A stretch of DNA of 30,873 bases from assembly GCA_001917535.1 (NCBI GenBank), contig MNEF01000095.1, positions 1-30,873 of the forward strand, given 5' to 3'. A model generated the notes under the pieces. It was not told the origin of the DNA. It worked only from the letters and a program-made list of their open reading frames with translations, and did no database searches. Shown here one piece after another: positions 1 to 15,073 of the stretch (positions are counted from its first letter, which is position 1; the number at the start of each line of letters is the position of its first letter). This stretch comes from Candidatus Rokubacteria bacterium 13_1_40CM_69_27. GTDB taxonomy: Bacteria; Methylomirabilota; Methylomirabilia; Rokubacteriales; CSP1-6. The position numbers were made by a program, and so were the translations under genes.

Positions 1-222
1 GACTTCAAGGCAGTGCTGAACCCCAACTCGCTGGAGGTGCTGCGCGGCTGCAAGCTGGAGCTGTCACTGAAAGGCGCCGCGCCCGAGTCCCGCTTCCAGT
101 TCGAGCGCCAGGGCTATTTCTGCGCGGACTCGAAGGATTCCGCGCCCGGGCGGTTGGTCTTCAACCGGACGGTGGGGCTGCGAGATACGTGGGCGAAGAT
201 CGAGAGGGGAGGAACAAGTTAG
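1..222 (+). CDS. glnS: Glutaminyl-tRNA synthetase, C-terminal end (5' part lies outside the window)
   Basis: Frame-1 translation ends ...[36 protein letters not shown]. This matches the conserved C-terminal anticodon-binding tail of class-I GlnRS (FER.GYF..D.DS...LVFNRTV.L.D.W). Stop TAG at 220-222. Flanking GC is high. Confidence 0.7.
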
Positions 223-345
223 CCCCTCTCCATGCTCTGTCAGGAAGAAAGATCTTTGCTCACCATCCGTCGAAGGCGTGATCGCAGACACGTGAGGTGC
301 GGCAGGTGAGTATGCTAGGCACCAGCGGAGTGAGCAAGGTAGCGG

Positions 346-373
346 TTGACTAAACCGGAGCATTCGTCATACT
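346..373 (+). promoter_or_regulatory. Candidate sigma70-type promoter (TTGACT-N16-CATACT) about 10 nt upstream of the ATG at 383, implying a leaderless or very short-leader transcript
   Basis: TTGACT at 346-351 and CATACT at 368-373 with a 16-nt spacer. No Shine-Dalgarno lies between the -10 and ATG 383. The region sits in a lower-GC intergenic stretch. Confidence 0.3.
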
Positions 374-382
374 AGTCTCGAG

Positions 383-688
383 ATGAAGCGACGCCACCTC
401 CCAGCCTCCAGCGCTGGAGGCCAGCCAATCCTCTCGCAATCGATCCGTATCGGGAACGAGACATTCAGCGCCCATTTAGGCATCATCGGGCGGATCGAAA
501 CCGCAGGCTTCGGCATCATCGTCGACAGCAAAAAACGAGAATTTCCGTTCACGTTCGACAAGATTTTCCGCTATCGCGGCCAGACCGCCGCAAGCCTCGG
601 TTTCGCCGTCGGGCATGAAGTGATTTTTGCGGTGCAGGGAAGTAGCATCATCACCGTCTTGCCATCGTCGACGTCGTCAGAGCCCTAG
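383..688 (+). CDS. Small protein with a cold-shock-domain-like (CSD/OB-fold) core and a ~30-aa N-terminal extension; first gene of the low-GC cassette
   Basis: Residues ~33-95, 'GIIGRIETAGFGIIVDSKKREFPFTFDKIF..GQTAASLGFAVGHEVIFAVQGSSIITV', align with the CspA pattern G.VKWFN..KGFGFI...G..DVFVHFSAI...G...L.EGQ.V.F....G.KG..A..V. Stop TAG 686-688 lies 3 nt before the next start, indicating translational coupling. Confidence 0.5.
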   Translation: MKRRHLPASSAGGQPILSQSIRIGNETFSAHLGIIGRIETAGFGIIVDSKKREFPFTFDKIFRYRGQTAASLGFAVGHEVIFAVQGSSIITVLPSSTSSEP

Positions 689-691
689 TCC

Positions 692-1351
692 GTGGCATCG
701 GCGCCCCAGTTGACCCTCGACCCGAGGAGGGTCGAGGGGGTGCGGGGTGTATTCCATCCGAGACACACGCTTCCACCACGTGTTCGAGAGTTTGGATACG
801 TTCCGGATCTGAACCAGCTTCGCCCAGGCGATCTTGTTCTTTTTTCGGCAGTCAAACCCCGCCGTCGTTCGCGCGCCATTGTTCGCAGTCAACGGGACGC
901 GGGCCATCATGAGGCAGACGCGCGATGGCATCACGCGGCGGTCTATGTCGGCGACTCCGAAATCTGTGAAGCCGTCGTTTGGCGTGGAGTCCATCTTGCG
1001 TCTCTCTACGATTCTGTGGAAACGCACCTTCTGCGGTTTCGGCGGGATCCCCGACTAACGGACCACGACAGCTGGCGTGTGGCAGTCAACGCATTGCGGT
1101 TTCTTCGCCGACGCTACGGCCTGGCAGCGCTATTTCGGATATGGCAGCAGACCAGACTGGGATTCTGGCGGCCCGACATTCGTCACAAGAAGCTGCGGGC
1201 CCGGATCTGCTCGGAACTCTACGCTGATGCTTACACGCTGACAACAGGCCGGATGCTGATGAGAGGCACACTCAATATATTGACACCCGCAGAACTAAGT
1301 GTGACCGCAGCACTTGCGGACATCCAGGTTGATTGGCTCCAGATCGCCTAA
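692..1351 (+). CDS. Hypothetical protein; candidate circularly permuted NlpC/P60 papain-fold enzyme (LRAT / YiiX-YaeF-like: His motif before Cys motif)
   Basis: The order 'LRPGDLVLFS' ... 'WHHAAVYVGD' ... 'ICSELYADAY' matches the permuted NlpC/P60 families (GDLI.F ... H.GIY.G ... C-S/E-x-F/L-V). Candidate catalytic His80/81 and Cys173 (tgc 1208-1210). GTG start at 692; an alternative GTG near 740 is preceded by GGAGGG. GC is lower than the flanks. Confidence 0.45.
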   Translation: MASAPQLTLDPRRVEGVRGVFHPRHTLPPRVREFGYVPDLNQLRPGDLVLFSAVKPRRRSRAIVRSQRDAGHHEADARWHHAAVYVGDSEICEAVVWRGVHLASLYDSVETHLLRFRRDPRLTDHDSWRVAVNALRFLRRRYGLAALFRIWQQTRLGFWRPDIRHKKLRARICSELYADAYTLTTGRMLMRGTLNILTPAELSVTAALADIQVDWLQIA

Positions 1352-1383
1352 GTAAGGGTGAGCCAGATGAGGGGAGGCTCGAG

Positions 1384-2316
1384 ATGGAAAGCGCCACCGC
1401 AAGTCAGATCCTGGACGACCACGTCTTCTTAGTGGGACGTCCACCTCTAGACGAATACCTGGGCTTTGTCACGGCTCAGACTGCAGATGCTGACGCTGTG
1501 GACATTGGCGTTCTTGCGAGCGACTGGCGAGCTGCCAACGATCATGTTAGAGAACTCGAACGCGTTGAGCAAGGCTGTGCCGATGCGCCAAGCATTGGAC
1601 CGGTAGGGAAAAACCTGAGCGCGCTGGTCGAGCAAGTTCACAGTGATCCGTTATTTCAGCGCTCGTTCGGGATCGTACCGACCGATATTGGTGTGGTCGA
1701 ACTGGATAAGGTGGTTGTCTATCAAAAGTTCATCAATTTGGCGTACGTGAGACAAATTCAACAAAAGCTTGGCCCTAATCCAACGGAAGAGGCTGTTTTT
1801 CGCCTGTGCTTACCGTTTGACCATCCCCAGCCCACGGTCAACTTCGGGCGTATTGCCAACAACGCGTATATGTTCATGTCGCCATCGACGGATCTGCGCT
1901 TTCTTGAGCCGGTATTGCTGCAGTTCGATAGGATTATTGGGCACCGGCCGCAGGGGCCAGTCGCGGGTGTCATTGCTCTACTGGTAGGATTCGGTTCGAA
2001 CTTTCTGAATCTTATTCACGTGGATAATCGCTTAGTGATGAACAATGGTAGCCATCGTGCGTATGCTCTTCGCGACATGGGCATTACACATGTTCCGTGC
2101 GCAATTCAGCGAGTATCGAGACGCGAGGAACTCCGTGTTGTCGGGAGCAGTGACTTGCAGAATAATCCCGACAACTACCTCAAGAATGCGCGGCCGCCAT
2201 TGTTGCGTGACTACTTTGATCCCGCACTTCAAAAGATCTTCAAAGTTCCTCGGAGGGTCCGCCAGGTAAAGATTGCCTTTGGTGTCGAGCAGCTCGATGT
2301 GCCGGCCAGCAGTTGA
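1384..2316 (+). CDS. Hypothetical protein with a C-terminal ParB/Srx-fold (ParB-like nuclease) domain; N-terminal ~200 aa unassigned
   Basis: ATG 1384 is preceded by GGGGAGG (1371-1377). The track's TTG 1333 is less likely. The motif 'NRLVMNNGSHRAYALRDMGITHVPCAI' fits the ParB/sulfiredoxin signature hydrophobic-x-DG-x-HR-x-x-A-x4-G-x3-[IV]P (His at 2053-2055). This is the lowest-GC gene in the window, about 40-48%. Confidence 0.5.
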   Translation: MESATASQILDDHVFLVGRPPLDEYLGFVTAQTADADAVDIGVLASDWRAANDHVRELERVEQGCADAPSIGPVGKNLSALVEQVHSDPLFQRSFGIVPTDIGVVELDKVVVYQKFINLAYVRQIQQKLGPNPTEEAVFRLCLPFDHPQPTVNFGRIANNAYMFMSPSTDLRFLEPVLLQFDRIIGHRPQGPVAGVIALLVGFGSNFLNLIHVDNRLVMNNGSHRAYALRDMGITHVPCAIQRVSRREELRVVGSSDLQNNPDNYLKNARPPLLRDYFDPALQKIFKVPRRVRQVKIAFGVEQLDVPASS

Positions 2317-2319
2317 CGT

Positions 2320-2440
2320 AATGTGTGAGCACCATCGCGTTCAGTCGCAAGGCCGGACGACCTTGAGAAGAAGTTACGACGCCGAGTTCAAAGTGGTCTT
2401 CGCCAGCGTCGACGCCGCCCGTGCGATCGGTTTTCGTCCG
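2320..2440 (+). pseudogene. Remnant of the 3' end of an ORF6N/ORF6C-family gene, a decayed paralog of the intact gene at 3712-4272
   Basis: Nucleotides 2350-2435 ('cttgagaagaagttacgacgccgagttcaaagtggtcttcg...gcgatcggttttcg') are about 85% identical to 4125-4235 of the intact gene ('ctcgagaaaaagtacgacgcccagttcaaagttgtcttcg...gcgatcggctttcg'). The encoded ..YDAEFKVVF...RAIGFRPP corresponds to ..YDAQFKVVF...RAIGFRAR, with a frameshift and an internal deletion. There is no start codon and no N-terminal domain. Confidence 0.45.
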
Positions 2441-2549
2441 CCGTCCCAATCGCGGGGGCGGGGATCAGCCGGGCGAAGGGGTAGAATCTTGCCGGCCCAC
2501 GGTGGGGCTGCGAGTAGCCGTTGCCCGGCCCCCAAGGGTAAGAGGCACC

Positions 2550-3620
2550 ATGAAGATCCATAACATCCAGGCCCGCCCCGTCGTCGCCCCGCTCGATCCG
2601 CCCGTGCGCACCGCGTCGGGGCACGTGACCCAGGCGCCGCTGCTGCTCATCGACCTCACGACCGACGAAGGCGTGGCCGGGCGCTCCTACCTCTTCGGCT
2701 ACCACGCGTTCACGCTGGCACCGTTGCGCGAGCTGGTGCTGGCGCTCGCCGAGATCATCAAGGGCGACCAGGTCGCGCCCATCGAGCTCGACAAGAAGAT
2801 GCGGGCGCGCATGACGCTGTTCGGCACGCGCGGGCTGCAGGGCCTGGCCATCGCGGGGATCGACATGGCGGCCTGGGACGCGCTCGCCGTCTGCGCCGGC
2901 GTCCCGCTCGCAGAGTTGCTAGGGGGCCGTCCTCGCCCCATCCCCGCCTACAACAGCCTGGGGATGATCCCGCCCGGCGAGGCCGCCGACGCGGCGGCCA
3001 AGACGGCGGCCGCGGGCTTCAAGGCGCTGAAGGTGAAGATCGGCTGGCCGACGCTCGCCGAAGATCTCGCCGTGGTGCGCGCGGCGCGCAAGCACCTCGG
3101 CGACGGCGCGCTCATGGTCGACTTCAACCAGTCGCTGGCGATTCCGGAGGCGATCCGCCGCGGCCGCGTGCTCGACGGCGAGGGGGTGAGCTGGATCGAG
3201 GAGCCCGTGCGCGCCGACGACTATCGCGGTGCCGCCGAGATCGCCGCGCAGGTGGCCACGCCCATCCAGATCGGCGAGAACTTCAACGGCGTGTACGAGA
3301 TGGAGCTGGCGCTCTCGCTCAAGGCCTGCGACCTCGTCATGCCCGATCCGCAGCAGATCGGCGGCGTGACCGGCTGGCTGCGGGCGGCGGCGCTGGCGCA
3401 GACGGCGGGCGTGCCGTGCTCGAGCCACATCTTCATCGAGGTGAGCGCTCATCTGTTAACGGTCACGCCGACCTGCCACTACATCGAGTACCTCGACGTG
3501 GCTGCGCCAGTCCTTGCTGAACCTCTCCGCCCGGTGGACGGCATGATCCAGGCCCCCGCGCGCCCGGGCATCGGGCTTCAGTGGAACGAGGAGACGGTCA
3601 AGCGCTACCGCGTGGGTTGA
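2550..3620 (+). CDS. Enolase-superfamily enzyme, mandelate racemase / muconate lactonizing enzyme family
   Basis: ATG 2550 follows the RBS AAGAGG. The product carries an MR/MLE N-terminal capping domain and a barrel domain with metal-ligand spacing: KVKIG, the D..Q (LMVDFNQS), EEP and D..Q/E motifs. It is 356 aa. Confidence 0.85.
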   Translation: MKIHNIQARPVVAPLDPPVRTASGHVTQAPLLLIDLTTDEGVAGRSYLFGYHAFTLAPLRELVLALAEIIKGDQVAPIELDKKMRARMTLFGTRGLQGLAIAGIDMAAWDALAVCAGVPLAELLGGRPRPIPAYNSLGMIPPGEAADAAAKTAAAGFKALKVKIGWPTLAEDLAVVRAARKHLGDGALMVDFNQSLAIPEAIRRGRVLDGEGVSWIEEPVRADDYRGAAEIAAQVATPIQIGENFNGVYEMELALSLKACDLVMPDPQQIGGVTGWLRAAALAQTAGVPCSSHIFIEVSAHLLTVTPTCHYIEYLDVAAPVLAEPLRPVDGMIQAPARPGIGLQWNEETVKRYRVG

Positions 3621-3622
3621 CG

Positions 3623-3649
3623 TTTAAGGTCGCAAACTGCGACCTTAAA
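3623..3649. repeat. Perfect palindrome TTTAAGGTCGCA-AAC-TGCGACCTTAAA (12-bp arms) 2 nt after the enolase stop
   Basis: Read directly from the sequence. It shares the core AGGTCGCA-N3-TGCGACCT with the palindrome at 4270-4292. No T-tract follows. Confidence 0.6.
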
Positions 3650-3711: not shown

Positions 3712-4272
3712 ATGGCGAAGCAGAGCGCCATTGTTCCAGCGGACCGGATCGAGCGGGCGATCGTCTTCATCCGTGGCCATAAGGTCATGCTGGATTTCGA
3801 TCTCGCAGCACTGTACGCAGTGCCGACCAGAGTGCTTGTGCAGGCGGTCAAGCGCAATGTGGCTCGATTTCCCTCCGATTTCATGTTCCGGCTGACTGCC
3901 GAGGAGGCAGAACGTTTGAGATCACAAATTGTGATCTCAAAGATCGGCCGCGGCGGACGCCGCTATGCACCCTACGCGTTTACCGAGCAGGGCGTCGCGA
4001 TGCTGTCCAGCGTCCTCAGAAGCCACCGAGCCATTCAAGTCAACGTGGCAATAATGCGGACGTTCGTACGGCTTCGGGCGATGCTTGCGTCACACGATGA
4101 CCTCGCCCGCAAGCTGGACGCGCTCGAGAAAAAGTACGACGCCCAGTTCAAAGTTGTCTTCGACGCGATCCGACATCTCATGGCTCCGCCAACTGCCGGC
4201 CGCCGCGCGATCGGCTTTCGCGCGCGCGCCGGCGGCGAGAACTTCAGTCGCCTGCGACCTCGTCGAATTTGA
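3712..4272 (+). CDS. ORF6N/ORF6C-domain protein (KilA-N-related putative DNA-binding regulator or anti-repressor typical of phage and mobile elements)
   Basis: The N-terminus '[76 protein letters not shown]' is the ORF6N signature. The C-terminal '[17 protein letters not shown]' is the ORF6C signature. Confidence 0.8.
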
Positions 4273-4292
4273 GGTCGCAATTTGCGACCTCA
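4270..4292. repeat. Palindrome TGAGGTCGCA-ATT-TGCGACCTCA overlapping the stop codon of the ORF6N gene
   Basis: Ten-bp perfect arms with the same AGGTCGCA/TGCGACCT core as 3623-3649. Confidence 0.6.
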
Positions 4293-4324
4293 CGTTGGAA
4301 GCGCGCCTCAGTCGCGTGGCGGCG

Positions 4325-4679
4325 CTAAACGATGCGGGAGCCTTCGCGCGTCTGCTGGCAGCCAAGACACGTCTCCGCGTCGGGCAGCGCGGCGAGCCGC
4401 AGATGCGCGATCTCCCCTCCGCACTCCTCGCAGAGGCCGTATTCGCCGCGCTCGACGCGCGCCAGCGCCGCCCGCAGTCGGCGTGCCCGATCGACCAGGC
4501 GCCTGGCGGCCAGATGTCCGAGTTCGCGCTGCTCCACCGCTTGGGCGCTGTCGAACAGATCGGTCGGGTTCTCGCTACTGAGGCTGGGGAAATCGCCGTG
4601 TTGAACGTCGAGGAGTCGCAGTTGTGTGAGCGTCATGGCGAGGTCGCTGCGAAGCTTGCGGGCGATCGGGTGCGTCATG
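4325..4679 (-). CDS. TraR/DksA-family C4 zinc-finger protein
   Basis: The C-terminal 'YGLCEECGGEIAHLRLAALPDAETCLGCQ' has the CxxC-x17-CxxC arrangement. It follows a coiled-coil-like segment typical of DksA/TraR. Start chosen at the internal ATG (MTHPIARKL...). The upstream part of the track ORF is Cys/Arg-rich and likely not coding. Confidence 0.65.
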
Positions 4680-6501: not shown

Positions 6502-7077
6502 CTACGGCAGGAGGTCGGCGACGGCGACGCAGGCCGCGGGGCGCGCCAGGGGAAACTCCCCCGCGTCTGGCTCCAGGACCCGAACGGAGCTATAGCGCCA
6601 GCCGAACGGTGCCGCGGCGTCGCGGATCGGCGCTCGATGGACCTCGAGAGCCCGATCGACGAGGTTGACGATCCAATAGTCCGGCACGCCGGCGCGGGCG
6701 TAGAGGCTGCCCTTCACGTTCCGGTCGAATGTCAGGCTCGACTCCGCGACCTCCACGACGAGCGCCGGCCGCGAGGGATGGGCCTCGCGGTAGTCGCGCC
6801 AACGGCCGGGTACCACGGCGAGGTCGGGCTCTGGCTCGGATTCGTTATCGAGGGCGACAGGGGCGCCGACGCGGACGACCCAGTGGGGGCCGAAAGCGTC
6901 CCTCAAGGCCTCCTCGGTGAGGCCGACGGCGGTTTCGTGTGGGCTCCCCTTCGGCTCGGCGACGATCAGCTCGCCGGCGATCAGCTCGATCGGCTCGTCC
7001 TCGTGGAGGACGCCGAGCTCCACGAGCCGGTCGTACTCCTGCCTCGTCCAACGTCGCGTGCGCGCTGGCGTAGCCAT
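6502..7077 (-). CDS. Uma2-family (DUF820) putative restriction-endonuclease-fold protein
   Basis: W.RQEYDRLVELGVL..DEPIELIAGELIV..P.G..H, PDLAVVP, ALVVEV.S.S....D...K...YARAGVPDYWIVNL. The start is uncertain: ATG 7077 or TTG 7113. Confidence 0.7.
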   Translation of the reverse strand: MATPARTRRWTRQEYDRLVELGVLHEDEPIELIAGELIVAEPKGSPHETAVGLTEEALRDAFGPHWVVRVGAPVALDNESEPEPDLAVVPGRWRDYREAHPSRPALVVEVAESSLTFDRNVKGSLYARAGVPDYWIVNLVDRALEVHRAPIRDAAAPFGWRYSSVRVLEPDAGEFPLARPAACVAVADLLP

Positions 7078-7151
7078 CGATCGGATCGTAACGACCGGCT
7101 CGTCCCGCGTCAACGTCCCCTAGCGGAGACGCCGGTCGGCGCCTCGGGCGA

Positions 7152-9464: not shown

Positions 9465-10713
9465 TGCGCACCTCCCCGCTGGCGCTCACCGACCACGGGA
9501 AGATCCCGTTGTGGTGCTGGACGAACCCCGCGATGGCCCGCGCCTTCATGATGTCCGGCACCGTCGGCTGCACGTAGCCGGTCGAGTCCACGGCGCGGCT
9601 CTGGATGACCGCCGGCCGGCCATCCCAGCTCCAGCGGTGGCGGAAGCGCGTGAGGCACTTGTCGATCACCGGCTCCTCGAGCGTCGCCGGCTGCCAGTTC
9701 TTCCCGCCGTCCACCGACACGTCGACGGCGGTGATCCGACCCCGCCCCGACCAGGCGAATCCCTGGATCTCGTGCAGGCCCGGGCGCTCGAGCTTCATGC
9801 CGCCCGAAGGGCGGGTGATGACCGACTTGCACTCCATGAGGAAGCTGAACTGTCGCCACTTGCCGTCCGGCATCGGGTCGGTGTACCGGGCGGTCTCGCT
9901 CCGGAAGTGCCAGGGCTGGTCGCCCACCTTGATGCGCCGGAGCCACTTCACCGACACGTTCCCTTCCCAGCCGGGGATGAAGACGCGCAGCGGATACCCT
10001 TGCTCCGGCCGCAGCATCTCGCCGTTCTGGGCGTACACCAGCAGCGCGTCGTCCATCACCTTGTCGAGCGGGATCGAGCGCGTGTGGTTCGAGCCGTCGG
10101 CGCCCTCGAACAGCACCCACGTGGCTCCGGGCCCGAGGCCGGCCTCGTCGAGCAGCCAGGAGACCGGGAGGCCGGTCCACTGCGCGCACGAGAGCAGGCC
10201 GTGCGTCTGCTGCACGGTGGTCGAGGCCGCCTTCGTCCAGTCCGCCAGCGTGTTGCCGGAGCACTCCAGGAAGTGGAACTTCGACACCGAGGGGTACCGC
10301 ATGAGATCGCTCATGCTGAACACCAGCGGCTGCTTCACCAGGCCGTGGATCACGAGCTTGTGCATCGCGGGATCGATGTCGGGGATGCCGGCGTGATGCC
10401 GCTCGAAGATCAGGCCGGTGGGCGTCACGATCCCGTGCTGGTGCTGGAGCGGCGTCATGCTCCAGTCCGACCAGTTCTGGCGGTTGACGAACACGTCGGT
10501 GCGGCGGCGGACGACGTGGCTCTCGAACTTCGAAGGCGTTCCGTAGGCCGTCGCCGGGATCGGGCGGCCCGGCTGCTGCGCCGTGGGCGGGATTGGGAGC
10601 GGCTCGGCGCCGGCGCGGCCGCCGACGCCGGCGCCGGCCAGCGCCGTGCCGGCGATCACCGCGCTCTTGCCAAGAAAGCTCCGCCGGCTGTGCTTGGTGT
10701 CGTTTCCCATCAT
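9451..10713 (-). CDS. sorA: Sulfite dehydrogenase / sulfite oxidase-family molybdopterin subunit with Tat signal
   Basis: ATGATG at 10713/10710 follows GGAGGGG. The Tat motif SRRSFLGKS is present. Moco-binding core: HFLECSGN, GLLSCAQWTGLP. A C-terminal dimerisation domain is present. Only the C-terminal 421 codons of the 1550-aa track ORF are genuine. Confidence 0.85.
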   Translation of the reverse strand: MMGNDTKHSRRSFLGKSAVIAGTALAGAGVGGRAGAEPLPIPPTAQQPGRPIPATAYGTPSKFESHVVRRRTDVFVNRQNWSDWSMTPLQHQHGIVTPTGLIFERHHAGIPDIDPAMHKLVIHGLVKQPLVFSMSDLMRYPSVSKFHFLECSGNTLADWTKAASTTVQQTHGLLSCAQWTGLPVSWLLDEAGLGPGATWVLFEGADGSNHTRSIPLDKVMDDALLVYAQNGEMLRPEQGYPLRVFIPGWEGNVSVKWLRRIKVGDQPWHFRSETARYTDPMPDGKWRQFSFLMECKSVITRPSGGMKLERPGLHEIQGFAWSGRGRITAVDVSVDGGKNWQPATLEEPVIDKCLTRFRHRWSWDGRPAVIQSRAVDSTGYVQPTVPDIMKARAIAGFVQHHNGIFPWSVSASGEVRNAIA

Positions 10714-10827
10714 CCCCTCCTTCACGCCGTCACGATGGCGCCGGATTATACACCGCGCTGGAAATGCTGCGGCAAACCGGCTATCCTCACGGCCCATTCG
10801 GTGGCATCGAGCCAGGAGGGATAGTCG

Positions 10828-11955
10828 ATGAAGAGATCGTGGGTGACGATCGTGCTGCTGGCGGGCCTCGTCGCGGCGGGCCCCGGCCGGGCGCTCTCCC
10901 AGGAGGTCATCAAGATCGGCGCGTTCGGCCCGATGACGGGCGGCGCGGCGGGCAGCGGCCAGAGCATGCGCGAAGGCATCGATCTGGTGATGGACGAGGT
11001 CAACGCCAGCGGCGGCCTCCTGGGGCGCAAGATCCAGGTCCTCTACGGCGACGATGCCGGCAAGCCCGAGCAGGCGGTGAGCATCGTCAAGCGCTTCACC
11101 ACGGCGGACCAGGTGACGCTGATCATCGGCGGCATCAGCAGCCCCACCAGCATGGCGGCCTCCCAGGTGACCGGTGAAGAGAAGGTGCCGCAGATCATGG
11201 TGGCCAGCACGGCGGCCCGCATCACGCTGCAGGGCAACCCGTGGATCTTCCGCTCGGCCGTGCCCGACGTGAAGCTCACCGCCGACCTGGCCGATTTCAT
11301 CGCCGAGAAGTTTCCCAAGATCAAGCGCATGGCCGCCATCTACGTGAACGACGACTTCGGCCGCGGTGGCGTCACCGGGTTCACGGAGGCCGCCAAGAAG
11401 CACGGGATCCAGATCGTCGTGGAGGAGAAGTACGTCCGGGGCGACGTGGACTACACGGCGCAGATCACCAAGATCCGCGCCGCCAACGCCGACGCCATCC
11501 TCGACTGGTCGCGTTACCACGAAGGGGCCCTGATCGCCAAGGGGCTGAAGCAGGCGGGCGTGACGATTCCGGTGTTCGGGGCCGACGGCAACGCCCATCC
11601 CAAGTACATCGAGCTGGGCGGGGACGCCGTGGACGGTAACTACTATGCGACACACTTCAGCCCCGCCACCAGCAGCCACCTGCCGGTGGCCCGCAAGCTC
11701 GTGGAGAAGATGCGCGCCAAGTACGGCAAGGATCCCGACTACACGCACTCGGAGGCGTACGACGCGGCGCTGGTCGTGGTCGACGCCGTCAAGCGGGCCG
11801 GGAGCCTGGACCGGGAGAAGATCCGAGCGGCCATGGCCGCGACCGACCTGGAAGGCAGCCGCGGCCGCATCCGGTTCGACAAGAACGGGGACCCGACCTT
11901 CGTCACCCACGTGGTCAAGGTCGTGAACGGCAAGGAGACCGACGCCCGCAAGTAG
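10828..11955 (+). CDS. Liv-type (branched-chain amino-acid family) ABC-transporter periplasmic substrate-binding protein
   Basis: Signal peptide. Type-I PBP fold motifs: IKIGAFGPMTG, GGLLGRKI.V.Y.DD, QVTLIIGGISS. RBS GGAGGG. Confidence 0.85.
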   Translation: MKRSWVTIVLLAGLVAAGPGRALSQEVIKIGAFGPMTGGAAGSGQSMREGIDLVMDEVNASGGLLGRKIQVLYGDDAGKPEQAVSIVKRFTTADQVTLIIGGISSPTSMAASQVTGEEKVPQIMVASTAARITLQGNPWIFRSAVPDVKLTADLADFIAEKFPKIKRMAAIYVNDDFGRGGVTGFTEAAKKHGIQIVVEEKYVRGDVDYTAQITKIRAANADAILDWSRYHEGALIAKGLKQAGVTIPVFGADGNAHPKYIELGGDAVDGNYYATHFSPATSSHLPVARKLVEKMRAKYGKDPDYTHSEAYDAALVVVDAVKRAGSLDREKIRAAMAATDLEGSRGRIRFDKNGDPTFVTHVVKVVNGKETDARK

Positions 11956-14101: not shown

Positions 14102-15073
14102 ATGGGCGGCCTCGCGCGCGGGCGCCGCCCCCTTCTTGTGCTCGCCCTGGTCGTCCTCCTCCTCGCGATTCCCTGGCTGCTGCCCCAGCGTTATTTCCTG
14201 CGCGTGGTCGACCTCGGGCTCGTCTATGCGGTGCTGGCCCTCGGGCTGCAGCTGCTGGTCGGATCGGCGGGCCAGCTCTCCCTGGGGCACGCCGCCTTCT
14301 ACGGCACCGGGGCCTACACCTCCGCGATCCTGGCCAGGAAGCTGGGCGTGCCGGTGGAGGCGGCCTTCCTGGCGGGCGCCGTGGTCGCGGCCCTGCTGGC
14401 GCTGACGCTGGTGCCGGTCCTCCGGCTGCGGGGCAACGAGCTCGCCGTCGCCACCCTCGGCTTCGGCGTCATCGTCCACGCCGTGATCCTCAACGAGGAG
14501 TGGCTGACCGAGGGGCCGTTCGGGATGATGAAGATCCCGCCCTTTCGCCTCGGCCTGCTGGTCTTCGACACCGAGTTCCGCTTCTACTACCTCGGCCTGG
14601 CGGTGACTGCCGCGACGTATCTGGCCTTTCGCCGCCTGACCCGCTCACGCTTCGGACGGGCTCTGGAGGCCATCCGCCAGAGCGAAGAGGCGGCGGTGAC
14701 CTCCGGCATCAACCCCGTGCGGTACAAGAGCAAGGTCTTCGTGATCGCCGCCTTCACGGCGGGGCTGGCGGGAGGACTCTTCGCGCATCTGAACCGCTAC
14801 CTCAACCCCAACGACTTCACGCTGACCGAGTCGATCAACATCCTGGTCATGGTCGTGGTGGGCGGACTGCGCAGCCTCGAAGGAGCCATCGTCGGCGCCA
14901 TGATCATCATCTTCGCGTCGGAGTATCTGAGAGCCTTCAAGGAGTACCGCCTGATCCTGTTCGGGGCGCTGCTGGTGGTCTTCATGGCGCTGGGCGCCGA
15001 GGGGCTGCGCGGCTTGCCGGCGAAGCTGGCGGCGGCGGCGCGGCGGCCGGCGCCGGAGCCGAGCGATGGGTGA
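14102..15073 (+). CDS. Branched-chain amino-acid ABC-transporter permease (LivM-like)
   Basis: Polytopic membrane protein. LGHAAFYGTGAYT is the LivM signature. Confidence 0.85.
   Translation: MGGLARGRRPLLVLALVVLLLAIPWLLPQRYFLRVVDLGLVYAVLALGLQLLVGSAGQLSLGHAAFYGTGAYTSAILARKLGVPVEAAFLAGAVVAALLALTLVPVLRLRGNELAVATLGFGVIVHAVILNEEWLTEGPFGMMKIPPFRLGLLVFDTEFRFYYLGLAVTAATYLAFRRLTRSRFGRALEAIRQSEEAAVTSGINPVRYKSKVFVIAAFTAGLAGGLFAHLNRYLNPNDFTLTESINILVMVVVGGLRSLEGAIVGAMIIIFASEYLRAFKEYRLILFGALLVVFMALGAEGLRGLPAKLAAAARRPAPEPSDG

Follow-up and report, generated by a model that had tools for sequence, protein, structure and literature searches.

A three-gene operon in a low-GC insert

We analysed a 30,873-nt stretch of DNA from Candidatus Rokubacteria bacterium 13_1_40CM_69_27 (contig MNEF01000095.1; hereafter the window, meaning the whole stretch), in which three genes that we call g1, g2 and g3 occupy an insert of low guanine-plus-cytosine (GC) content between glnS and a gene for an MR/MLE-type (mandelate racemase/muconate-lactonizing) enzyme. 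An earlier reading of this DNA, which we refer to as the original prediction, had described the three genes as one compact, horizontally acquired operon that matches no described system and had taken them for a likely anti-phage or toxin module. The insert extends over positions 223-2541 and includes a remnant of an ORF6N-type gene. The features of the region are as follows; GC3 is the GC content at third codon positions.

1-222, plus strand: 3' end of glnS, the host gene of the left flank, outside the insert; it can be aligned with the 3' ends of glnS in two relatives, L142 and L143 (tRNA-synt_1c domains), and has a GC3 of 0.85
169-184, plus strand: left copy of the perfect 16-nt direct repeat ACGGTGGGGCTGCGAG (repeat family D19), within the glnS codons for TVGLR
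346-373, plus strand: sigma-70-like promoter candidate TTGACT-16-CATACT from a consensus scan, ending 9 nt ahead of the g1 ATG
383-688, plus strand: g1, 101 aa
692-1351, plus strand: g2, 219 aa, GTG start
1371-1377, plus strand: Shine-Dalgarno-like GGGGAGG, 6 nt ahead of the g3 ATG at 1384
1384-2316, plus strand: g3, 310 aa
approximately 2357-2445, plus strand: 3' end of an ORF6N-type gene (YDAEFKVVF...RAIGFRP), a remnant recognized by its repeat matches to an intact ORF6N gene
2499-2514, plus strand: right copy of ACGGTGGGGCTGCGAG, at the right junction; TAGCC comes next, as at the glnS stop (220-224)
2550-3620, plus strand: MR/MLE-type enzyme (MR_MLE_N and MR_MLE_C domains), the host gene of the right flank

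The three plus-strand open reading frames (ORFs) and both junctions between them can be read from the sequence as originally described. Three bases separate the g1 stop codon (TAG, 686-688) from the GTG start of g2, and this start is supported because residues 1-16 of g2, including a conserved LDPR at residues 8-11, align with homologues. The g3 gene follows g2 after 32 nt and is preceded by the Shine-Dalgarno-like sequence, and no intrinsic terminator is predicted anywhere within the insert, including the g2-g3 gap. The promoter candidate that had been proposed for the operon can be located ahead of g1, although the consensus scan returned three sites in this region where 1.0 +/- 1.0 are expected and so supports the candidate weakly. 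No Shine-Dalgarno sequence was found between the promoter candidate and the g1 ATG at 383, and the arrangement would fit a g1 transcript that is leaderless or has a very short leader. The three genes form a single compact operon of soluble proteins.

The insert is a horizontally acquired cassette

The insert differs in composition from its host. Its GC content is 0.568, as against 0.686 across the remaining window, and the GC3 of g1 (0.72), g2 (0.60) and g3 (0.57) falls short of the 0.84-0.96 seen in 27 host-like ORFs of the window. The drop in GC content noted in the original prediction is thus real, as is the recovery around the ORF6N remnant, but the quoted range of 40-58% fits only the troughs, because 100-nt values within the insert run from a minimum of 0.41 to a maximum of 0.68.

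MR/MLE homologues at 92-99% identity are found in Rokubacteria/Methylomirabilota contigs, and two relatives on long contigs (L142 and L143), located through MR/MLE homologues 92-94% identical, have an empty site. In L143 only 57 bp lead from glnS to the MR/MLE gene, and in L142 the two genes are separated by an unrelated spacer of 379 bp. The blastn homology of both relatives to the window breaks at about position 208 and restarts at about 2542, which sets the limits of the insert at approximately 223-2541. The insertion originally placed at 223-2325 is therefore genuine, but its right end lies 216 bp further on and takes in the ORF6N remnant. That remnant is recognized by two repeats shared with the intact gene at 3712-4272, which matches PF10543 at E 3.5e-32: D3 (2375-2402 versus 4135-4162, 93% over 28 nt) and D7 (2419-2441 versus 4203-4225, 83% over 23 nt). 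The coding content of 223-2541 consists of g1, g2, g3 and the remnant; no integrase, excisionase or transposase was found there.

The perfect 16-nt repeat at the junctions is longer than expected by chance: when the two 300-nt neighbourhoods were shuffled 20,000 times under a first-order Markov model, no shared repeat reached this length, the longest being 15 nt (P<5e-5). We considered a simple attL/attR integration at this repeat and rejected it, because the right junction lacks the native glnS tail that such an event would leave there. The strain variant L005, which matches 3.6 kb of the window (1-3616) at 98.95% identity, carries the same insert, and three further short contigs are 100% identical pieces of it. 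From the empty sites in relatives, the homology breakpoints, the deviation in GC and GC3 and the junction repeat, we conclude that the insert is a horizontally acquired 2.3-kb cassette.

The three proteins

The folds that had been guessed for the three proteins were all borne out, although none of the proteins reaches a curated cut-off in Pfam, NCBIfam, PHROGs or PADLOC, and profiles built from their families found nothing significant among PDB sequences. The g1 protein has the five-stranded OB-type (oligonucleotide/oligosaccharide-binding) beta-barrel with the topology of a cold-shock domain (CSD) and ends in a Ser/Thr-rich tail, LPSSTSSEP. Ser/Thr-rich tails are shared by the g1 proteins of the window, of two other loci described below (L101 and L139) and of the closest relatives (LPSSTSSEP, TSSSVATADTGS and others). 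A Pfam search with the window protein gave no match at E<=1; the CSD profile matches one of 52 members of the g1 family (E 0.043), and the family profile finds CspC among PDB sequences at E 0.39. In the family consensus, the motifs G-(F/L)-G-(I/F)-I and Y-P-F-T-F (F56 is invariant, F58 almost so) fall at positions that resemble RNP1 (K/R-G-F-G-F-I) and RNP2 (V-F-V-H-F), an equivalence drawn by eye.

The g2 protein is a permuted papain-fold enzyme of a rare family, with 103 clusters of homologues and 49 loci in 185,579 species genomes (596 Gb). Nine columns are invariant among 31 aligned sequences (W79, H81, E93, R115, R117, R118, Y142, C173 and S174), among them the Cys173 that the original prediction had picked out. 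The catalytic residues come in the order His81, the polar Glu93 12 positions on, and Cys173 at the start of a CSxLYADAY helix, which we take to be the arrangement of permuted papain enzymes of the YaeF/YiiX and LRAT types. PF05708 (Peptidase_C92) matches 20 of the 31 family members at E<0.01 (best 1.4e-6) and NLPC_P60 matches five. The window protein itself stays below curated cut-offs (NLPC_P60, 14 bits versus 23; NF008552, 20 bits at E 2.6e-4 versus 279), and we class g2 as a distant relative of PF05708 that is not a member by threshold. The family has a conserved N-terminal segment of its own, as well as a patch of invariant residues, Arg115/117/118. No hydrophobic segment is present in the window protein, an absence that argues for a cytoplasmic location.

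The g3 protein combines a unique N-terminal region of about 190 residues, which matches no known fold, with a C-terminal domain that has the ParB/Srx core fold. The ParB/Srx fold is known from DNA partition, sulfiredoxin and serine kinases. The loop N221-G-S-H224-R225-A is strongly conserved, with N221, G222, S223 and R225 invariant and H224 present in at least 90% of sequences; H224 is encoded by codon 2053-2055, which had been singled out originally, and lies in this NGSHR loop. It preserves the Gly-x-His/Arg-Arg phosphate-binding loop of the ParB/Srx superfamily, a putative nucleotide loop. Structural neighbours include sulfiredoxin, an ATP-dependent phosphotransferase that acts on protein, and two free-serine kinases, although no Foldseek match is significant. 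Neither the g3 protein nor a 32-member g3 profile has a match in Pfam, NCBIfam, PHROG or PDB sequences, and no helix-turn-helix (HTH) or nuclease domain or motif was identified in g3. The family comprises at least 1,689 clusters, none with an annotation, and the window protein is full length with all family-invariant residues intact. Searches of phage genomes by tblastn gave no match to g2 or g3; in IMG/VR, g3 is present on two contigs and g2 on none.

g1 and g2 form a mobile two-gene cassette

A g1-like ORF accompanies g2 in 46 of the 49 genome loci, nearly always directly upstream and on the same strand (the exception is L041). The two genes are tightly spaced, with a median projected distance of 5.5 nt from g1 stop to g2 start and many overlaps of 22 or 28 nt. 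No relative of g3 lies within 8 kb of g2 in any of the 49 loci, and no other third gene recurs beside the pair. The flanks hold diverse housekeeping genes, such as those for RecA, tRNA synthetases, ArgJ and acetolactate synthase, with only scattered matches to defence-type genes (restriction, Mad, Bil). Where the surroundings of the closest relatives of the pair are visible, an integrase fragment or an IS3 element adjoins; the Methylomicrobium lacus pair has an integrase on one side and restriction/RloB-type genes on the other, and the Methylibium pair is carried by a conjugative megaplasmid. Frameshifts or truncations affect several copies, and the distribution is patchy, covering Acidobacteriota, Proteobacteria, Cyanobacteria and Methylomirabilota. 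The diversity of the flanks, the lack of a third gene, the adjoining integrase and IS3 sequences, the megaplasmid location and the decayed copies together show the pair to be self-contained and mobile. Thus, g1-g2 is a widespread and translationally coupled two-gene cassette.

In eight acidobacterial loci a second, divergent g1-like gene lies just upstream of the pair, always on the minus strand (L013 7268-7630, L017 5370-5723, L022 464-784, L023 7281-7601, L025 2802-3152, L028 7349-7711, L044 7354-7629 and L050 3656-3976). Apparent g1-g2 fusions in L026 and L029, which are long stop-free ORFs, were dismissed as frame artefacts of GC-rich DNA.

The trio recurs in diverged lineages

Co-occurrence of all three genes, for which the original prediction had called, is found from the side of g3 and not from that of g2. 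The trio recurs in L139, in L101/L099 (one lineage) and in L072, and together with the window these represent four diverged lineages with three gene orders. In L139 the operon is collinear (g1-g2-g3), with g3 69% and g2 60% identical to the window proteins and with different flanks that lack glnS. In L101/L099 g2 and g1 are divergent from g3, and in L072 the order is g3-g1-g2 on one strand. The g2 proteins from the window, from L139 and from L101 form a subclade with the homologue P0122, with 54-60% mutual identity and at most about 50% identity to all others. Wherever the surroundings of a subclade member can be seen, g3 adjoins g2; the L072 g2 is a more distant relative of the subclade.

Four of approximately 85 independent g3 loci examined contain g1-g2. 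Because g2 is so rare, only about 5e-5 chance g2 neighbours are expected in the 0.55 Mb of g3 loci, and the association is far beyond chance. Most g3 genes nevertheless have other partners, and the trio is not a general unit. Recruitment may have occurred repeatedly, or the two modules may each prefer the same hot spots.

The public annotation of L139 contains a spurious call of a 135-aa ORF on the minus strand (519-926), which masks the plus-strand g1 and g2 and is an example of a trio hidden in existing annotation. A TTGACA...TAATAAT sequence ahead of the L139 g1 fails the spacing rule of the promoter scan and was not used as evidence. In L003, a 222-aa protein encoded upstream of g3 proved not to be a g2 homologue.

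g3 relatives lie beside leader peptides and exporters

We surveyed the surroundings of g3 in 80 metagenome loci and four plasmid loci. The commonest neighbour in the metagenome loci, directly upstream and on the same strand, encodes a protein of approximately 825 aa that matches Peptidase_M50 weakly, contains an HExxH motif and membrane segments, and carries an HlyD barrel-sandwich domain at its C-terminus. This M50-HlyD partner is present in 13 of the 29 g3 loci that have at least 2.6 kb of upstream sequence; the window has no homologue of it. A PqqD-like domain at its N-terminus looked plausible by eye, found no support in Pfam and is not claimed here. In nine g3 loci, a small ORF upstream of the M50-HlyD gene encodes a leader of the form LE(I/F)ERLE(E/Q)RIAP followed by a repetitive core rich in Ser, Thr, Gly, Asn, Ala and Gln, for example with ATQATH or GSKSGASAS repeats. 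The leader motif has no occurrence in 664 kb of control DNA from g2 loci. The ORFs with this leader are the following.

L065: 5028-5312
L074: 1344-1730
L076: 1579-1896
L077: 2835-3188
L079: 1692-2045
L080: 1490-1804
L095: 43-330
L126: 2850-3059
L136: 4554-4745

The leader ORF, the M50-HlyD gene and g3 may constitute an undescribed type of cluster resembling those for peptides made on ribosomes and modified after translation (RiPPs).

The four alphaproteobacterial plasmid loci have a different layout, the same in all four: a small peptide, g3, HlyD and an ATP-binding cassette (ABC) transporter with a peptidase domain. Their g3 homologues are 36-41% identical to the window protein and have the loop N-G-(Y/H)-H-R-A. 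The peptides have a leader of the double-glycine type, MR(D/E)L..E(L/W)..V.GAG, and a core rich in Ser, Lys, Arg and Asn. In the Paracoccus and Rhodobacter plasmid loci the next gene is annotated as a kinase-like 'ATP-binding protein', followed in Rhodobacter by a response regulator. The ORFs with a double-glycine leader, one of them unannotated, are the following.

L144: 1334-1516 and 3516-3698
L145: 4665-4817
L147: 5683-5838
L148: 5742-5885

The window contains no ORF with either kind of leader and no ABC exporter.

Further neighbours of g3 include CapH/CapP-like HTH/M78 regulator pairs, a retron reverse transcriptase (RT)-Toprim gene and HamB. In three loci a pair of GMT-wHTH and DUF5131 genes lies directly ahead of g3 (L001 187-1910, L002 405-1190 and L059 160-1880), and the pair in L059 matches the PADLOC candidates PDC-M30A/B and PDC-M41B. 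The g3 gene may be an unrecognized third gene of the PDC-M30/M41 candidate system in some genomes. A literature search on PDC-M30, on ParB-like proteins with RiPPs and on M50-HlyD proteins with leader peptides found no description of these families, and for double-glycine bacteriocin or pheromone loci no ParB/Srx-like component was found.

Variable sites and repeats around the cassette

The spacer between glnS and the MR/MLE gene and the spacer downstream of the MR/MLE gene both vary among relatives. L005 departs from the window just past the MR/MLE stop codon, where it has a gene for a HicB-like protein of 71 aa. This gene is followed by a duplicate, 205 nt long and 93.7% identical, of the 3' end of the MR/MLE gene (L005 3723-4516 compared with window 3416-3620). 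The region past the MR/MLE stop is a second insertion hot spot at which the 3' end of the target gene is duplicated.

A 23-nt palindromic unit, TTTAAGGTCGCAAACTGCGACCT, has three copies that are 74-100% identical (3623-3645, 3915-3937 and 4268-4290; families D1 and I1), placed before, within and just past the intact ORF6N gene. The copies resemble operator sites or elements of the repetitive extragenic palindromic type, and the ORF6N gene might be a small mobile unit. The close relative L142 has three genes for Uma2-family endonucleases in 15 kb (3838-4362, 10343-10918 and 14329-14904), and related sequence is present in the window at approximately 6502-7113 on the minus strand, with 66-81% blastn identity to L142. 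These Rokubacteria genomes seem to be rich in small selfish cassettes.

Proposed function and alternatives

We propose, with a probability of roughly 0.45 for the model as a whole, that the operon is a mobile accessory or conflict cassette in which g2 is the effector, g1 its partner and g3 a nucleotide-dependent modifier. The g2 protein would be the catalytic component, acting in the cytoplasm as a cysteine hydrolase or acyltransferase. The g1 protein would be its stoichiometric partner, supplied in fixed proportion from the coupled upstream gene, and could either neutralize g2 in the manner of a type II antitoxin or target g2 by binding single-stranded nucleic acid. The g3 protein would use a nucleotide to modify a Ser/Thr-rich peptide segment and would not cut DNA, a role suggested by the two independent peptide/exporter architectures of its family together with its sulfiredoxin and serine-kinase structural neighbours. 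Because the trio has no separate peptide gene and g1 tails are Ser/Thr-rich, the most plausible substrate of g3 in the trio would be the tail of g1. The unit as a whole would behave as a toxin-antitoxin-like or defence-like mobile cassette and not as a housekeeping operon.

Several observations weigh against this proposal. The step that makes g1 the substrate of g3 is weak, since the g1 protein of L072 has no Ser/Thr tail, and the peptide logic is borrowed from relatives that are 36-60% identical, while the window itself has neither a leader-peptide ORF nor an exporter. The window g2 lies under every curated cut-off, and nucleic-acid binding by g1 is modelled from the fold, the CSD and MazE profile matches being insignificant. 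Within the g3 family, the genes from the trio loci are scattered and do not group as nearest relatives of one another, a pattern that suits repeated co-location in the same hot spots just as well as a functional partnership. Finally, the adjacency of some g3 loci to candidate or known defence genes (the PDC-M30/M41-like pair, CapH/CapP and the retron RT) would also fit a defence role.

A stronger form of the proposal, which we regard as quite improbable, takes g3 by analogy to be the signature ParB/Srx-fold, nucleotide-dependent enzyme of undescribed ribosomal peptide systems in which it would modify Ser/Thr-rich cores. This idea draws on the placement of g3 relatives beside peptides with double-glycine or LE(E/Q)RIAP leaders, a peptidase and an HlyD exporter. 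The trio would then be an intracellular version that lacks an exporter, with the tail of g1 as the substrate of g3 and with g2 in place of the M50 or C39 peptidase. If true, the trio would amount to a switch, carried on a mobile cassette, that works through modification of a nucleic-acid-binding protein.

The composite model has to be set against the original prediction of a three-component anti-phage (abortive-infection) system, in which g3 would be a nuclease or sensor of DNA modification, g2 a hydrolase effector and g1 a nucleic-acid-binding adaptor. Much of what led to that reading has held, in that the cassette is foreign, compact and mobile, the three folds are confirmed and the trio occurs in three gene orders. 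ParB/Srx domains occur in DndB, SspE, Menshen and BREX-related systems, the neighbours of g3 elsewhere include the defence-associated genes listed above (the PDC-M30/M41-like pair, CapH/CapP-type regulators, retron RT-Toprim and HamB), and the trio locus L101 has a gene for a dCTP-deaminase-like protein and one for a SEC-C-motif protein nearby. However, none of the three proteins has a match in PADLOC-DB v2 at E<=1, and the window is no defence island: the neighbours are glnS, the MR/MLE enzyme, the ORF6N gene and pirin. The label of a nuclease-like effector was given to g3 for its fold; neither a nuclease motif nor a DNA-binding HTH could be identified in the protein, and the dominant contexts of its family are secreted-peptide operons and not DNA systems. 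The flanks of g1-g2 are mostly housekeeping genes with scattered defence matches, and the absence of g2 and g3 from sequenced phages gives no sign of counter-defence traffic. We therefore consider an anti-phage system of this kind unlikely.

The presence of the three genes in one operon could also reflect no functional link at all, with a toxin-antitoxin-like g1-g2 pair and g3 being unrelated cargo that shares hot spots or mobile elements. The absence of g3 from all 49 g2 genome loci, the small number of g3 loci with g1-g2 (in three lineages besides that of the window), the variable gene order and orientation, the scatter of trio g3 genes in their family and the variability of the two spacers beside the MR/MLE gene would all be expected if this were so. 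Yet four trio loci were observed where about 5e-5 were expected, g3 adjoins every subclade g2 with visible context, and the window and L139 retain the collinear operon in different flanks and at protein identities of 60-69%. In the window, moreover, g2 and g3 are only 32 nt apart with no terminator between them. Independent cargo is for these reasons a doubtful explanation. Alternatively, g3 might be the orphan of a decayed export cluster for a RiPP-like or bacteriocin-like peptide, and the block the eroded stump of a larger mobile element. The ties of the g3 family to leader peptides and exporters would agree with such an origin, as would the ORF6N remnant and the lack of an integrase despite the flanking direct repeat. 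However, g3 is full length with its family-invariant residues intact, the exporter-less operon is also conserved in L139, and neither a peptide gene nor HlyD, M50 or an ABC exporter has left a trace in the window. We judge this the least probable of the explanations, and very unlikely.

Comparison with known systems

In architecture and mobility the cassette is similar to toxin-antitoxin or small defence modules, but it belongs to no described system. The g1-g2 pair resembles type II toxin-antitoxin modules in having a small beta-barrel partner encoded first, at a median gap of about 5 nt or with an overlap, and in its patchy occurrence between housekeeping genes, beside integrases and IS elements and with frequent decay. 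It differs from them in the size of g2, which with its 219 aa exceeds most classical toxins, and in the third gene attached here, and the literature search found no toxin-antitoxin family in which a cold-shock-fold protein is the partner of a permuted papain-fold enzyme. With YaeF/YiiX (Peptidase_C92, PF05708) and LRAT-type enzymes, g2 shares the permuted order of His before Cys, the polar residue at +12 and the Cys173 helix, whereas its position under the thresholds, its own N-terminal segment and the Arg115/117/118 patch set it apart. To our knowledge, YaeF/YiiX have no obligate CSD-like partner of the kind that g2 has. If g1-g2 is a true toxin-antitoxin or defence module, it would bring a new effector chemistry together with a new kind of partner protein.

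The g3 protein has the core fold and the loop of the ParB/Srx superfamily (sulfiredoxin, SerK, SbnI, the ParB/KorB/Noc CTPases and DndB/DUF262/SspE) but shows no significant sequence or Foldseek match to it, lacks an HTH or nuclease domain and has its unique N-terminus. Its partners differ as well: ParB and DndB/DUF262/SspE proteins go with parA/parS, dnd/ssp or HNH/DUF1524, whereas g3 goes with leader peptides and exporters or with g1-g2. The label 'ParB-like nuclease' should accordingly not be transferred to the g3 family on the basis of fold alone. The four plasmid g3 loci resemble double-glycine bacteriocin or pheromone loci, in which a precursor, HlyD and an ABC exporter with a C39 peptidase are often joined by a kinase and a response regulator; the window differs from such loci in having none of these partners. 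The placement of a ParB/Srx-fold family beside Ser/Thr-rich leader peptides would extend the fold into peptide natural-product or signalling biology, and the leader peptides of the family are concrete candidate substrates.

The insert as a whole is like the small integrative islands found at the 3' ends of genes, in that it is absent from close relatives, has a deviant composition and is flanked by a direct repeat that duplicates part of the 3' end of the target. Unlike such islands, it has no integrase, excisionase or transposase, and its right repeat is not accompanied by a displaced glnS tail. As a small accessory operon that is mobile and occupies an intergenic hot spot, the cassette is of a familiar form, and what is new is the combination of genes and the two undescribed protein families that it brings together.

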